Below, piece by piece: positions 35,180-63,725 of a stretch of DNA of 64,000 bases. Source of the DNA: a virus (lineage: Duplodnaviria > Caudoviricetes); the IMG/VR virus record IMGVR_UViG_2654587994_000003, positions 44,557-108,556 of that record; one strand, written 5' to 3'. Under the pieces are notes generated by a model. That model was not told the origin of the DNA. It saw only the letters and a program-made list of their open reading frames with translations, and did not search any database. Each line of letters opens with the position of its first letter. Position 1 is the first letter of the stretch. A program made the translations under genes and the position numbers.

Positions 35180-35256
<77 letters not shown>

Positions 35257-57415: not shown

Positions 57416-57762
57416 GCCGCCACCCGCTCACTACGCAGTGCGTAGTCGTTGACCGCCTGCCCCGCCGCCAGATCTTCAGCATTGTCATTTGCCGCGGCAA
57501 GAACGCGCGGGAGCGAAACCGGCATAAGGCCGGAAAGCGTGGAGCAACCGCCGTTGTGCGGCGCCAGGTGCGTCGTGCGGTCGGGATTGTTGTCGTTGGC
57601 GGCAATGATGGCGCGCTGCTTGTGCAGGCCGTATGTGCGCCGAAGCCGCTGGTATGCTGCCATTGGCTTGACGTTGTATCTGGCGGCGATATCTGCGACG
57701 CTCTCACCGTTTTCACGGCGCGCGTGCATATCCGCCAGCATTGTGCTGGTGATAAGCGTCAT
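57412..57762 (-). CDS. Small HTH protein (cro-like position)
   Basis: GESVADIAARYNV..AYQRL; first gene after promoter copy 3. Confidence 0.7.
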   Translation of the reverse strand: MTLITSTMLADMHARRENGESVADIAARYNVKPMAAYQRLRRTYGLHKQRAIIAANDNNPDRTTHLAPHNGGCSTLSGLMPVSLPRVLAAANDNAEDLAAGQAVNDYALRSERVAA

Positions 57763-57815
57763 GTCGTCTCCTCTGGGTGGTGGCCGCTTGTGGTTGACAA
57801 AGCGACAGGGTTATG

Positions 57816-57847
57816 AAACTAAACTATTTTTACAAATTTGTCAAGAT
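57816..57847 (-). promoter_or_regulatory. Repeated phage promoter/operator, copy 3
   Basis: TTGACA-17-TAGTTT with the same ACAAATTTGT core. Confidence 0.7.
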
Positions 57848-57864
57848 TTCACGAAGGTGGATGC

Positions 57865-58467
57865 ATGCCTGAAGTTAAGTCGCGCCTCCTGCAGTCGATA
57901 CTGAAAGAACAGAAGCGGAGAGCCGTAAAGGATCGCGCTGTCTACGAAGAGTTAGGCGTGCCTCAGCAGACCTTCAGCACCTGGAAAGCTGGCGTCATAC
58001 CGAGACCAAGACAATTCCCGGCGATTGCCGCCTTCCTCGGTGTCTCCGAAGAAGATGTGGCGGAGATGGCTCGCGAGGCGGCCGAAACAGCCCCGTCCAT
58101 CACGCCGATTACGGTTGCCCGTACCTACGGCAAGATTTCCGACCGCAAGGCTGGCAAATTCAAATTCGAACCAATCAACGATGGCCGCAAACGTATTCCT
58201 GAAGGCAGGTACGCGATCATCATAGACACGAAAGTGATGGAGCCTGTCTTCCACGTTGGCGTGAAAGCTTGGCTTGACCCTTCCCGCTGGCCCGCCGCCG
58301 GTGACGACGTTCTGGCCCATTCTGGCGGATTCGCCTGGATTGGGCGCTTCGAAGGAATGAGCAACGGCGCCGTTCAGCTTGGCCACTACGATGGATCGCA
58401 GCTTGAAGTGAAGAACGTGGAAGCTGTCCATGTCATCGTCCTTTCGGAGCGGGTGGTTACAGCATAG
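57865..58467 (+). CDS. XRE-HTH repressor with degenerate S24-like C-terminus
   Basis: ELGVPQQTFSTWKAG..P; VMEPVFHVG..WLDP. Confidence 0.75.
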   Translation: MPEVKSRLLQSILKEQKRRAVKDRAVYEELGVPQQTFSTWKAGVIPRPRQFPAIAAFLGVSEEDVAEMAREAAETAPSITPITVARTYGKISDRKAGKFKFEPINDGRKRIPEGRYAIIIDTKVMEPVFHVGVKAWLDPSRWPAAGDDVLAHSGGFAWIGRFEGMSNGAVQLGHYDGSQLEVKNVEAVHVIVLSERVVTA

Positions 58468-58491
58468 CGAGGTGGTGGCTCGGAATGCTGC

Positions 58492-58520
58492 TTGACAATT
58501 CCTACAAATTTGTGTAGGAG
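58492..58520 (+). promoter_or_regulatory. Promoter/operator variant in front of the candidate sRNA
   Basis: TTGACA-17-TAGGAG containing ACAAATTTGT within CCTACA..TGTAGG. Confidence 0.6.
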
Positions 58521-58524
58521 ATTG

Positions 58525-58656
58525 ATCGTCCGCTGTGGTGGCGGATATGGAATACGCGCTTTGATCCCGCCTTACGGCGAAGGTCTCCTCGGCGTGTTAG
58601 TACGGAGAAGGGGCGGAGTTACGGGTGGTGCCGGCTCATTACGCCCCTTTTCGTTT
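58525..58656 (+). ncRNA. Candidate trans-acting antisense sRNA
   Basis: Three stem-loops exposing TGTGGTG, GTCTCCTC and GTGGTG; last stem AAGGGGCG..CGCCCCTT followed by T-run. Confidence 0.6.
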
Positions 58657-58741
58657 TCTGCTGCATGCACGACAACGCCGGCAGAGCTTCATGCTCCACC
58701 GGCGCTAAGTTTTCGAAGTCATTGTTTGCGGTCTTTCTCAT
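58619..58741 (-). CDS. 40 aa peptide
   Basis: GGGGAGAC RBS, MRKTANNDFENL..; 3' end overlaps the sRNA terminator antisense. Confidence 0.45.
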   Translation of the reverse strand: MRKTANNDFENLAPVEHEALPALSCMQQKTKRGVMSRHHP

Positions 58742-58797
58742 AGTCGTCTCCCCTTCTGGCATTATTGGTTTTGTTATCGCCAGTTGGTTGCTGGCGT

Positions 58798-58941
58798 TTA
58801 CGGCGGCCCGGTCACTGGCCGCCATCTTCTTCTGCGATCGGGAGCTTCATGCTCCCATCTTCTTCTCGCCGTCATGGCGGTCATGCCGATCAGCGCTTGG
58901 GTCGTCGATCGTCTTCTTTCGCAATCCTTAAACATGCGCAT
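58798..58941 (-). other. AGA-run leader peptide / structured leader RNA
   Basis: 47 codons with three AGA runs interleaved with hairpins; AAGGGA RBS. Confidence 0.45.
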
Positions 58942-59014
58942 TCCCTTTCATGCTGCAGGTTCGTCTTGGGGTCTGTTGCCCTGTCGGCTTCTTGTTTGGC
59001 CGCTGTTGATTTTG

Positions 59015-59056
59015 GTTTTACCCGTATTTGGGTTGGTCGTCAACCCGAATATGCAT
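59015..59056 (-). promoter_or_regulatory. pR-like promoter with two repressor operators
   Basis: TTGACG-17-TAAAAC; operators ACCCGTATTTGGGT (59020) and ACCCGAATATGCAT (59043). Confidence 0.7.
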
Positions 59057-59090
59057 TTTACTTGCATTTATTTATGGGTTATCTGACATC

Positions 59091-59750
59091 ATGGATACTG
59101 TGGCCCTCACTCGAATGCTGATCTCACACTACGGCAATGAAGAAGCGTTGGCCGCCCTAGCCGGCGTGGGGCAGTCATCGGTAAACAGGTGGGCGAACGG
59201 CGGAAACATTCGGGGTAACCACCTTCTTCGCTTGATGGAACTAGCGCGTAGCGTTCCGTCTGCCGCGGACATCATTGCTGACGTTACTGACGTCGCCTCA
59301 CATAATGAAGGCTTCACGCCGACGGTCGTACCTGGTCGAGAACTAGTAGGCGAGAAAAATCTCCCTGTTTTCGCAGCCGCGATGGGCGGAGAGGGCCATC
59401 AGATCGTGACATTTGATGCGATCGATTATGTGAAACGACCATCCATCCTAGAGAACGTCAAGGATGCCTACGGCGTATACATCGTCGGAGAATCGATGAC
59501 TCCCGCCTTCGAACCGGGAGACATGGCGCTCGTGCATCCACACCTACCTCCGGCGCGCGACAAGAACGTTGTGCTTTACCATGTCCCTCCATTTGGGCAC
59601 GGAGAAGCAGAAGCGATCGTCAAGCGCCTGGTCAGGTGGAGCGACCGAGACTGGCACCTAAAACAGTACAATCCGAGCATCGAATTCACCGAATCTCGCG
59701 CGGACTGGAAGTGGTGCCATCGTATCGTAGGCAAGTATGAGGCTCGATAA
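59091..59750 (+). CDS. CI-like repressor (HTH plus S24 peptidase)
   Basis: LAALAGVGQSSVNRW; GESMTP and IVKRL catalytic Ser/Lys; no SD, possibly leaderless. Confidence 0.9.
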   Translation: MDTVALTRMLISHYGNEEALAALAGVGQSSVNRWANGGNIRGNHLLRLMELARSVPSAADIIADVTDVASHNEGFTPTVVPGRELVGEKNLPVFAAAMGGEGHQIVTFDAIDYVKRPSILENVKDAYGVYIVGESMTPAFEPGDMALVHPHLPPARDKNVVLYHVPPFGHGEAEAIVKRLVRWSDRDWHLKQYNPSIEFTESRADWKWCHRIVGKYEAR

Positions 59751-59760
59751 GCGGCATCCG

Positions 59761-59997
59761 TCACTCATAAGCAGGCAAATCCGCAATATGCTCTGGCACC
59801 TCACCGGCGCCAGCAACTAAAAAAAGCTCACTGGACGATGCGGCTATAGCGACTACGCAGACTTTCTCTGGGGAAATCCTGTCAACGATTTTCCTTGCGT
59901 GCGCGACTGAACCAACCTGCATTGGAGCATCCGGAGATACCCCTCCTCGCGTTGAACGCGTGAAACTCTGCACAATAAACACTTCGCTCAAATCCAT
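59761..59997 (-). CDS. Small LexA-boxed hypothetical protein
   Basis: 78 aa, GGAGG RBS, SOS box upstream. Confidence 0.65.
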   Translation of the reverse strand: MDLSEVFIVQSFTRSTRGGVSPDAPMQVGSVAHARKIVDRISPEKVCVVAIAASSSELFLVAGAGEVPEHIADLPAYE

Positions 59998-60032
59998 AAC
60001 CCTCCATTGCCAGAACACTGACTCCAAAACTA

Positions 60033-62221: not shown

Positions 62222-62474
62222 CAACACCCCTCGCCTCATGGGCAGAAGAGAAGCCGCCGCCTATCTCGGTATAGGACAGTCAACGTTCTCGCTGTGGGTA
62301 TCGACCCACAAGATGCCGGCAGCTATTGCCGGCACTCGTAAGTGGGACAAGCGCGCGATTGACGCTAAACTCGATGAGATAAGCGGGCTGCTGCCGGCGA
62401 ACGACAATACCGAGGATGAATTCGAACGATGGGAGCGCGAGCAGAATGCGCGAAAAGCTCAAGGGTCTAGCTAG
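62205..62474 (+). CDS. Excisionase-like HTH protein
   Basis: LMGRREAAAYLGIG.STF..W..RKWD; overlaps int. Confidence 0.8.
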   Translation: MSPANDNTPRLMGRREAAAYLGIGQSTFSLWVSTHKMPAAIAGTRKWDKRAIDAKLDEISGLLPANDNTEDEFERWEREQNARKAQGSS

Positions 62475-63507
62475 GGTCAAGAAGCGGCTCGCGAGCGGCA
62501 AGACTATCACATACTGCTACGCCTGGCGCGGCGGTCCCCTGCTAAAGGACAGGGCTGGCCGTCCGCTGCAACCCGGCGACCCGCTGCTTATGCGGGCGTT
62601 TGTCGAAGCTACGAAGGATCGCTTCGTCGACCAGACCGACAACATGAACCGGCTGATTACCGAGTACAAATCGTCAACCGACTTCACCGGTCTCTCCCCA
62701 AAGTCGCAGAAGGAATACAGCCGCTACATCGACAAGGTGCGCGATGCATTCGGCACAATGAGCCTCGTCGCTATCCAGGACAAGCGAGCGCGAGGCAAGT
62801 TCAAGGAGTGGCGTGATGGCATGGCGGATAAGCCTCGCAGCGCTGACTTCGCATGGATGGTGCTTGCACGCATACTGTCGGTGGCAAAGGACCGTGGCCG
62901 TATTTCGATAAATCAGGCGGAACGCGGCGGGCGCATCTACAGCGTCGATCGCAATGAAAACATCTGGACCGAAGAAACATTGGAACGCCTTTTCGCCGTG
63001 GCTTCCGACGAGATTAAGGCCGCAGTCATCATGGCGTTGTGGACCGGTCAGCGTAAGGGGGACATCCTCAAGGCCCCATGGAGCGACTACGACGGTTCAT
63101 ACATCAAGGTGAAGCAGGGCAAGACCAACGCTCGCGTGAAGATCCCCGCTGGCGCCGAGCTCCGCGAGCTACTGGACAGCATGCCGCGGATATCGCCCAC
63201 TATCCTCACCAACAAGCGAGACAAGCGGCCGTGGACTTCCGACGGGTTCAACACAAGCTGGACGAAGGCAAAAGCCAAGGCCAGTATCACGAACCTAACT
63301 TTCCACGACCTCCGCGGTACGGCAGTCACGCGGCTTGCCATCGCAGGGTGTTCAGTAGCGCAGATCGCAGCGATCACCGGCCACAGCCTGAAAGACGTGG
63401 AAGGCATCCTTGATGCTCACTATCTCGGCGGCAAAGCCGCCCTCGCCGAGGAGGCGATAAAGAAGCTAGAGGATTATCGCGCAACGCCAAATAAGAAGCC
63501 CGCTTGA
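62446..63507 (+). CDS. int: Tyrosine integrase
   Basis: TGQRKGD, KT, FHDLRGT, ITGH, HY catalytic residues. Confidence 0.93.
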   Translation: MREKLKGLARVKKRLASGKTITYCYAWRGGPLLKDRAGRPLQPGDPLLMRAFVEATKDRFVDQTDNMNRLITEYKSSTDFTGLSPKSQKEYSRYIDKVRDAFGTMSLVAIQDKRARGKFKEWRDGMADKPRSADFAWMVLARILSVAKDRGRISINQAERGGRIYSVDRNENIWTEETLERLFAVASDEIKAAVIMALWTGQRKGDILKAPWSDYDGSYIKVKQGKTNARVKIPAGAELRELLDSMPRISPTILTNKRDKRPWTSDGFNTSWTKAKAKASITNLTFHDLRGTAVTRLAIAGCSVAQIAAITGHSLKDVEGILDAHYLGGKAALAEEAIKKLEDYRATPNKKPA

Positions 63508-63680: not shown

Positions 63681-63725
63681 CTTCTAAGCAGTAGGTCGCA
63701 GGTTCGAGTCCTGCAGGGGTCGCCA
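63681..63725 (+). repeat. att core: 3' half of tRNA-Arg(TCT)
   Basis: Begins at anticodon loop CTTCTAA, has T-arm GCAGG-TTCGAGT-CCTGC and ends GCCA; no 5' half upstream. Confidence 0.85.

Follow-up and report, generated by a model that had tools for sequence, protein, structure and literature searches.

A tiny, Arg-rich gene filled with AGA codons lies after the main early promoter of a prophage and of many of its relatives, and sequence comparison suggests that it is probably a translation-sensing brake on early transcription. The prophage is that of IMG/VR provirus record IMGVR_UViG_2654587994_000003 (108.5 kb), of which the right-hand 64 kb, hereafter the window, were analysed. The gene is best explained as a translated leader small open reading frame (sORF) of the transcript from this promoter (pR), with p069 of Rhizobium phage 16-3 as a member of the same family, and the function that we favour for it, a ribosome-mediated attenuator of the early (pR) transcript, appears to us evenly poised between right and wrong. 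The parts of the leader are given below in the direction of transcription from pR.

59013..59041, minus strand: early, pR-like promoter (-35 TTGACG at 59036-59041, a spacer of 17 nucleotides (nt), -10 TAAAAC at 59013-59018), with a putative transcription start near 59006
58942..58948, minus strand: Shine-Dalgarno (SD) sequence AAAGGGA, 6 nt 5' of the second ATG of the sORF
58798..58935, minus strand: leader sORF, 45 codons and a stop (47 codons from an ATG at 58941), MFKDCERRRSTTQALIGMTAMTARRRWEHEAPDRRRRWRPVTGPP-stop
58912..58917, minus strand: AGA run 1, AGA AGA and then CGA (context GAA AGA AGA CGA), invariant in 18/18 aligned sequences
58867..58879, minus strand: hairpin 1, CGCC-AUGAC-GGCG, weak and not conserved (gapped columns in 6/18 aligned sequences), not predicted by RNAalifold
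58858..58866, minus strand: AGA run 2, AGA AGA AGA (context GCG AGA AGA AGA TGG), within the repeat AGAAGAAGATGG
58840..58856, minus strand: hairpin 2, GGGAGC-AUGAA-GCUCCC, beginning 1 nt after AGA run 2
58825..58833, minus strand: AGA run 3, AGA AGA AGA (context CGC AGA AGA AGA TGG), within the other copy of AGAAGAAGATGG, invariant in 18/18 aligned sequences
58802..58823, minus strand: hairpin 3, GGCGGCC-AGUGACCG-GGCCGCC (as DNA, GGCGGCC-AGTGACCG-GGCCGCC), beginning 1 nt after AGA run 3, with a 3' arm that codes for GPP
58798..58809, minus strand: Gly-Pro-Pro-stop, GGG CCG CCG TAA, an end common to 22/22 distinct relatives
58778..58796, minus strand: hairpin 4, CGCCAG-CAACCAA-CUGGCG, just 3' of the sORF stop

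The promoter was read by eye and by position against the annotated Pr of 16-3, and a consensus scan did not list it; a TAnnnn hexamer stands at the -10 site in every relative, precisely where homology to the window begins. The putative transcription start lies about 70 nt upstream of the sORF start at 58935. The translation listed for the longer form (58798..58941, 47 amino acids (aa)) is identical to that given in the initial annotation, which had been made from the letters alone, but the start is likely the second ATG (58935), giving 45 aa, and on this point that annotation is corrected. The second ATG is the conserved start: divergent relatives lack the first and have GGAG 5-7 nt before the second, an SD equivalent at the same site (seen in L107 and L117; loci of relatives are numbered with an L). 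Spacing between SD and start is 6-7 nt across relatives, with a better SD in the divergent ones, and in the fold of the leader RNA of the window the SD falls within a hairpin loop.

The three AGA runs lie where the initial annotation had placed them, as reading the codons from the sequence confirms. AGA accounts for 109/1296 Arg codons (8.4%) in the 62 long open reading frames (ORFs) of the window and for 8/12 in the sORF, a binomial probability of 9e-7 against that background. The sequence AGAAGAAGA is found only twice in the 64 kb, both strands considered, and both copies are in the sORF; the 12-mer AGAAGAAGATGG also occurs twice, where 0.26 occurrences are expected and 2/100 shuffles reach two. 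Each copy of this exact 12-nt repeat lies 1 nt 5' of a GC hairpin. The peptide carries ERRR at residues 6-9 and more Arg runs spread along its whole length, and the residue eight places ahead of its stop is aromatic, W for the window and F for 16-3. It has no Pfam or PHROG match at E<=0.01 and no match in the ESM Atlas, and no predicted protein sharing three of its 5-residue words was found in a collection of 5.8 billion clusters.

Close relatives were collected with the product of a 200-aa repressor-like gene, convergent with the leader, as query. This led to 29 viral loci, at 23 of which homology spans 57700 to 59009-59022 and then stops, with a further match in cI only in L106. The frame was surveyed in 26 sequences (25 loci and the window), of which 24 are distinct; L104 is cut by the end of its contig, and 22 distinct relatives were readable. 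The frame is intact in 21 of these 22, and the GPP-stop end is kept with TAA, TGA or TAG as the stop and CCG, CCT, CCC or CCA before it. Insertions and deletions (indels) within the sORF measure 9, 18 or 54 nt, and 1-nt indels occur just upstream of its start. The ratio of nonsynonymous to synonymous substitution rates (dN/dS) is 0.16-0.43 for the sORF in seven pairwise comparisons, as against 0.03-0.07 for the 200-aa gene, and synonymous relative to nonsynonymous variants are most frequent in the sORF frame (27:45; 25:46 in the plus-strand frame that shares its wobble positions). We conclude from this pattern that the sORF frame appears to be read and its peptide to be under weak constraint. 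A plus-strand ORF of 100 aa over the same DNA (58784-59086) was rejected: 1-nt indels break its frame outside the span of the sORF, it crosses the mosaic junction and it has no SD. Programmed frameshifting at the AGA runs was also set aside, the downstream ORF lying in frame -1 in the window and +1 in 16-3, and AGA AGA not being, by eye, a slippery heptamer.

Selection on the AGA runs acts at the level of the codon. In L098, L109, L118, L119 and L120, 8/8 AGA codons are kept as AGA, and a change from AGA to AGG is seen only once in the family (L111). By comparison, conserved Arg positions of the 200-aa gene keep their codon in 7/15 cases in L119 and 5/13 in L120, and within the sORF itself 7/15 and 6/18 of the remaining conserved residues, respectively, have a changed codon. 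Synonymous divergence (dS) is 0.60 in the sORF versus 1.43 in the 200-aa gene for L119, and 0.32 versus 2.15 for L120. The share of AGA among Arg codons is 4.7-6.4% in 16-3, RHph_TM3_3_14B (TM3_3_14B below) and L129.

All three hairpins proposed in the initial annotation are present, but hairpin 1 has only 4 base pairs (bp) and is missing in 6/18 aligned relatives, and the "ACCA" hairpin motif named there was not found. The minus-strand RNA of 58770-59006 folds with a z of -5.5 and the plus strand with -3.0. In a structure alignment of 18 of the 24 distinct leader sequences, with three hairpins taken as structure, 98.6% of 276 cells are paired versus 38-50% in slid controls, and 0/500 shuffles reach the observed covariation score. 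One A-U pair of hairpin 2 becomes U-G in five sequences and C-G in one, and L119 has a different stem at this position. Hairpin 3 has 100% of its cells paired, with changes from C-G to G-C and from C-G to U-G in L118 and L119, where those in the 5' arm replace residues (WRPV to WWAS) and those in the 3' arm are synonymous and keep GPP. Hairpins 2 and 3 are recovered independently by RNAalifold, and because of G-U pairs the structure fits the minus-strand RNA better, with 272/276 cells pairing as minus-strand and 263/276 as plus-strand RNA. Conservation across relatives, suggested as a check by the initial annotation, is thus seen for the AGA codons and for hairpins 2 and 3. The loop of hairpin 2 is AUGAA or AUGAG in 17/18 aligned sequences; the window has just two hairpins that combine an AUGAA loop with a stem of at least 5 bp, and this leader holds both of them, the other early operon having none. 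Rfam 15 gave no match at gathering score and, up to E=5, only a chance-level VqmR (E 1.1) on the plus strand. Two copies of the 14-mer GGAGCATGAAGCTC are present on the minus strand (58673-58707 and 58840-58856), each at the apex of a hairpin and each coding for EHEA in the local frame; they do not change in concert among relatives.

An alignment-based scan gave 69 viral loci, of which 43 are divergent (23-62% identity) and have 41 distinct leaders. At least one small ORF with in-frame AGA runs is found on the promoter side at 30/43 divergent loci. Across the 41 leaders, the promoter strand has 33 copies of AGAAGAAGA and the opposite strand has one, and runs of at least three AGA are in frame behind an SD and ATG or GTG in 33/33 cases, as against 0/33 in each other frame. 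A GC hairpin begins at most 15 nt after the run in 25/33, with stem sequences that vary by lineage, and its tail is U-rich in 16/33; a predicted terminator thus follows the regulatory codons at these 16 runs, and also in TM3_3_14B and L129, and the window has 0 such sites on the minus strand. AGA makes up 175/270 Arg codons in 37 distinct sORFs, a share inflated by the selection of the set for tandem AGA. A search of viral contigs for the exact double-repeat pattern matched 71 stretches, most of whose contig names are absent among the relatives found with the 200-aa protein.

The common type of divergent sORF reads ...RR..APKGxxPPRRR, with a stop 0-4 codons later, often in the loop of a hairpin GCCGCC...GGCGGC that is followed by UUUCCUUUUUAU; other stems stand at the same site in L161 and L188. 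The NV1.1.1 type ends in ...KGQPP-stop, 7 nt 5' of a terminator-like hairpin. TM3_3_14B and L129 are one G apart, so that their peptides end in RRRGRHEGGLSYL-stop and RRRGPP-stop, respectively, with the hairpin unchanged; this hairpin scores as terminator-like on both strands. The GPP-stop end recurs in 16-3 as well as L129, and one plan is common to L117, at 27 aa the shortest form, and to the 30-aa core of 16-3: xxDxE, RRR, a spacer, RRR with W or F, four residues and GPP-stop. Across the family the recurrent theme would be a slow-to-read signal, either an AGA run or Pro-Pro-stop, directly 5' of a hairpin. A mini-ORF of 9-10 codons (MLALLDDRRV-stop and variants), with a strong SD and AGA AGA just before the stop, precedes the main sORF in the terminator-type leaders L164, L167, L172, L173, L191, L125 and L129; in L164 it is followed by a small hairpin and a run of U.

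Phage 16-3 is a classical temperate phage of rhizobia, and its repressor and operators are well studied. In its genome (NC_011103) p069 is the first ORF after the annotated Pr/OR1/OR2, with the product "p069" and no function annotated. The map is that of the window: the C repressor, Pc/Pr with operators, minus-strand p069, the convergent p070 (a 200-aa helix-turn-helix (HTH) protein, 45% identical) and the early operon. The 30-aa core of p069, MIKDVEGTRRRRGAMRAHRRRFCGQRGPP-stop, has the plan MxKDxE...GPP-stop of the window peptide and in-frame AGA runs (AGA AGA AGA CGC and AGA AGA CGA), and GC hairpins stand behind these, GCGCU-AUGAG-GGCGC and a terminal GCGGCC-AGAGAG-GGCCGC that is followed by CC-UAG. 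The two leaders differ in that p069 is annotated with 55 aa from an upstream ATG, has two Arg runs where the window has three, and places the AUG of the loop in another frame.

Taken together, the leader is a short, SD-led ORF after a promoter in which an AGA run is kept as codons. On the reading as an attenuator, the tandem rare AGA codons and, in the lineage of the window, Pro-Pro-stop would hold the ribosome before or on the GC-rich hairpins, which in most related lineages would be intrinsic terminators. With a ribosome stalled at that point, the 5' arm of the hairpin would be covered and RNA polymerase would continue; if the leader were untranslated or translated late, the hairpin would fold and the transcript would be stopped or slowed, which sets the presumed sign of the regulation. 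In lineages with U tracts, the Pr transcript would end before entering the convergent 200-aa gene. The pR transcript would have to cross this repressor-like gene in antisense on its way to the early operon, and the leader would therefore gate lytic entry by translation and AGA-decoding capacity. For the window itself the mechanism is a matter of inference, since its own hairpins are without U tracts; the output here could be a pause, termination by Rho on the A/C-rich RNA that follows the stop, or control of a second small ORF, the one that contains a 15-bp AUGAA-loop hairpin (58673-58707).

The initial annotation had listed an attenuator sensing tRNA-Arg(UCU) as one of three readings, and this is the one favoured by AGA runs that are always in frame, kept as AGA and placed 5' of GC hairpins, and by U tracts in most divergent lineages. 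Several observations nevertheless weigh against it. Its weak point is the lineage of the window: none of the five terminator-like sites between 57700 and 59400 is on the minus strand, and hairpins 2 and 3 have no U tract. L110 has an in-frame TAG and yet keeps every RNA feature; the change (TCG to TAG) hits the Ser codon of ERRRS, homologous to 58905-58907, in a leader that is otherwise 97% identical. A dN/dS below one together with the conserved ERRRSTTQA and GPP means that the peptide itself may act. No such sORF is present at 13/43 divergent loci, four of which have less than 400 nt of flank, and the 33/33 count comes from related phages whose events are not independent. The covariation likewise stems from few independent events, with only two pairs, one in hairpin 2 and one in hairpin 3, changing on both sides. 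No alternative antiterminator pairing stood out in the folds, although no systematic search for one was made. Finally, four RNA libraries, all runs of one study, contain the stretch as contigs that give no strand, ends or level, and minus-strand transcription is neither shown nor excluded by them.

Alternatively, the peptide could be a small, basic, Arg-rich RNA binder acting in trans, an N-like antiterminator or autoregulator whose targets would be the AUGAR-loop hairpins on the RNA that encodes it. The dN/dS values and the synonymous Ser variation (TCG, TCA, TCC) within ERRRSTTQA would suit a functional peptide, as would the single plan on which L117 and the 16-3 core are built, and the loop of hairpin 2 is nearly invariant. 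We nevertheless consider this reading, also proposed in the initial annotation, unlikely and unsupported by the comparison: the peptide is small (27-45 aa) and without a Pfam, PHROG, protein-collection or Atlas match; AUGAA-loop hairpins are confined to one transcript; the loop frame is AUG AGG in 16-3 and CAU GAA in the window; the 1-nt indel between TM3_3_14B and L129 alters the peptide end and leaves the hairpin; peptides of the terminator-type leaders share little with that of the window beyond Arg runs; and rare codons would not be retained in 8/8 cases if the product had to be made in large amounts. No boxA-like element was noticed by eye, no search for one having been run. The opposite possibility, that the RNA alone matters, as an (ARN)n site for Hfq or as a structured cis leader (put-like, or for processing or stability) in which the ORF is incidental, draws on the match of (AGA)3 to the ARN motif of Hfq, with at least three A-R-N triplets and AGAAGAAGA present twice, on the compensatory changes in hairpins 2 and 3, on the depressed dS of the sORF and on the nonsense codon of L110. 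The motif is thus present, as the initial annotation had pointed out, but the SD-led frame, the in-frame indels and a dN/dS below one are left unexplained. An ARN site would tolerate AAN, AGG and AGC, whereas the family holds a single AGA to AGG change; the sORF ends at a conserved position whichever of three stop codons is used, the runs are in frame in 33/33 cases and in no other frame, and Rfam has no match. We regard a role of the RNA alone as improbable.

Two further accounts were considered. Rare codons might only hold down the production of a small protein that would do harm in larger amounts, with hairpins that are unrelated, much as clusters of rare Arg codons tune the expression of a mobile gene in the case of the EcoVIII restriction enzyme (available text of PMC6456624); this leaves unexplained why runs adjoin a hairpin (25/33) or a terminator (16/33) and why the stop lies at or in the hairpin, and it strikes us as very improbable. 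Instead, transcripts of the 200-aa gene might end at these hairpins, which would then be terminators of the plus strand with UCUUCUUCU tails and would have the AGA runs as a mere complement. Hairpins 2 and 3 are indeed listed as terminator-like sites on the plus strand, with the tail ATCTTCTTCT, and the hairpin of TM3_3_14B and L129 scores on both strands. On that strand, however, G-U pairs become A-C mismatches (272 versus 263 of 276 cells), nothing about a U tract requires a strict periodicity of 3 nt that matches the frame of an SD-led ORF, and a stronger terminator is already present at 58605-58665. This last account is scarcely credible to us.

As an attenuator, the leader would resemble trpL, hisL and pheL, which also have an SD-led short ORF after the promoter, a codon run near its end and a GC hairpin, and in most lineages of the family a U tract directly follows the hairpin, as in those attenuators. 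Rhizobia have an attenuator leader of this kind in the trpL/rnTrpL leader of S. meliloti (PMC6614838), and attenuation at the pheL leader has been described (PMC3082878), to judge by the accessible portions of both sources. Unlike trpL, hisL and pheL, the present leader would use one rare synonymous codon (AGA) and not all codons of a limiting amino acid, it belongs to a phage early operon, the hairpins of the window are without U tracts, and no antiterminator hairpin was found in the folds, which were not searched systematically. The pyrBI leader of E. coli and TnaC, with its C-terminal Pro and neighbouring Rho site, are leaders that work by coupling or by arrest at the stop codon. There, as is proposed here, a ribosome in the leader beside a termination signal would decide on read-through, and the Pro-Pro-stop end, together with the aromatic residue that precedes the stop by 8 positions, is reminiscent of arrest peptides; unlike in pyrBI and TnaC, no sensing of a ligand or nucleotide is suggested. 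Lambda N, of about 107 aa, and its nut sites are similar in combining an Arg-rich peptide at the start of an early operon with RNA that has pentaloop hairpins. The present peptide differs from N in its size of 27-45 aa, the lack of a family match and the lack of a second site on the other early operon, and the leader differs from nut in that its loops are not GNRA-like and its rare codons are conserved as codons. Control by Hha and argU extends to prophage lytic genes (PMC2408971, available text), and prophages are known to sit at argU. In this system and that of EcoVIII, as far as the accessible text of PMC2408971 and PMC6456624 goes, tandem AGA ties the expression of a mobile element to a rare tRNA, as it would here; here, in contrast, the AGA codons are in a leader beside hairpins and not in the regulated gene.

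The genes and sites around the leader are the following.

59023..59053, no strand: inverted repeat with 14-bp arms over the promoter, a putative cI operator
59091..59750, plus strand: cI-like repressor (HTH and S24 peptidase), assigned by Pfam and PHROG family searches
58619..58741, minus strand: second small ORF, 40 codons, SD GGGGAG, coding uncertain
58673..58707, minus strand: 15-bp hairpin with an AUGAA loop, then UUGUCGU, inside the second small ORF and the positional counterpart of a terminator-like site of 16-3
58605..58665, plus strand: intrinsic terminator with a long loop, GGGGCG...CGCCCC then UUUUCGUUUUCU, probably of the 200-aa gene
57865..58467, plus strand: 200-aa repressor-like gene, convergent with the leader (PHROG phrog_4, E 3.6e-8; 45% identical to 16-3 p070)
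from 57762 downwards, minus strand: early operon (Sak4-like, SSB-like and others)
62416-63507: integrase
63681..63725, plus strand: att core, the 45-bp 3' half of tRNA-Arg(TCT), which the loose ends join to the tRNA 5' half

The initial annotation was right in noting the absence of cro: the interval from the promoter to 58468 contains no HTH ORF, and its small ORFs have no Pfam or PHROG match. With cI as query, 8 viral and 3 genome loci were found, which share only 23 bp of the promoter region, a piece of the inverted repeat over the promoter and the only part of the leader that they have in common with the window. One of them, L001 (cI 72% identical), has no 57800-59022 module, and the early-operon HTH gene follows its promoter directly; this marks 57800-59022 as a cassette. 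The block consists of the 200-aa gene, both small ORFs and some conserved non-coding DNA, and in nearly all close relatives the cI module next to it is an unrelated one. In bacterial genomes, the 200-aa protein was found in 0/401 of an order sample, 0/11 of the genus and 3/401 of a family sample, figures that are not evidence of absence, and a search for the leader DNA in two Brucellaceae genomes reached via cI gave chance-level matches only. L110, L118 and L119 have about 2.7 kb of extra DNA between 58647 and 58799, directly behind the sORF stop, in which three ORFs on the minus strand code for 193, 70 and 320 aa; the second of these products resembles a small HTH regulator by eye, no family search having been run on it. 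The second small ORF has a 1-nt insertion in L097, and its 5' part is replaced in L110, L118 and L119.

The terminator at 58605-58665 is probably a shared plus-strand module. Its loop motif GCCGGCACCACCCG is kept in 16-3, TM3_3_14B, NV1.1.1 and L001, and a 52-nt match (86% identity) lies in an intergenic gap of Agrobacterium phage Milano in gene-sense orientation. The palindrome ACAAATTTGT occurs four times in the window (57832-57841, 58504-58513, 4946 and 47478). Two of the copies flank the 200-aa gene and are candidate operators of its product. Of these two, one overlaps a minus-strand TTGACA-17-TAGTTT ahead of the early operon, and the other a plus-strand TTGACA-17-TAGGAG (58493-58521) that would drive an RNA of about 130 nt antisense to the second small ORF, a candidate antisense RNA. 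In RNA library X6, 57582-60013 forms a single contig of depth 72, with flanking prophage contigs of depth 2-15, which may reflect lysogenic expression of the immunity region; libraries X5, X7 and X8 each have a single contig, of depth 75-110, that spans the entire 12 kb.

The att core is part of tRNA-Arg(TCT), as initially annotated: the same 45 bp close an intact tRNA-Arg(tct) gene 64.7 kb upstream in the record, so that the lysogen keeps an intact gene. The connection drawn earlier between this tRNA and the AGA codons of the leader is real for this prophage but not general, as 16-3 shares the AGA-rich leader but has an annotated attP core that corresponds to the 3' half of tRNA-Pro(CGG). The leader does not depend on a tRNA-Arg att site, since 16-3 combines it with tRNA-Pro and the cI module differs in nearly all close relatives. 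The prophage also carries a tRNA-Met(CAT) gene (35180-35256, minus strand). The broadest form of the proposal appears improbable to us: a whole clade of 16-3-like temperate phages of alpha-proteobacteria would have neither Cro nor N directly after Pr and would instead gate lytic entry by a leader with tandem rare codons that senses the AGA-decoding capacity of the cell (tRNA-Arg UCU). Here this would be paired with integration into that very tRNA gene, whose last 45 bp and downstream flank are supplied by the prophage, possibly tying the sensed tRNA level to lysogeny.

Prophages of the 16-3 type are highly prevalent in Ochrobactrum, according to the available text of PMC5492332. In the literature searched, including the accessible parts of PMC11476347 and PMC5492332, no account of the stretch right after the 16-3 Pr was found, and "p069" has 0 occurrences in the available text of PMC10460002, the supplementary tables of which may list the ORF. 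The leader would thus add to the phage genes a conserved and, in our reading, regulatory sORF that gene callers have missed, given that the collection of 5.8 billion clusters holds no relative. If the proposed function is true, the family would provide a natural attenuator whose regulatory signal is a rare synonymous codon and not an amino acid, and the lysis-lysogeny switch of this clade would have a checkpoint that reads translation instead of a DNA-binding Cro.

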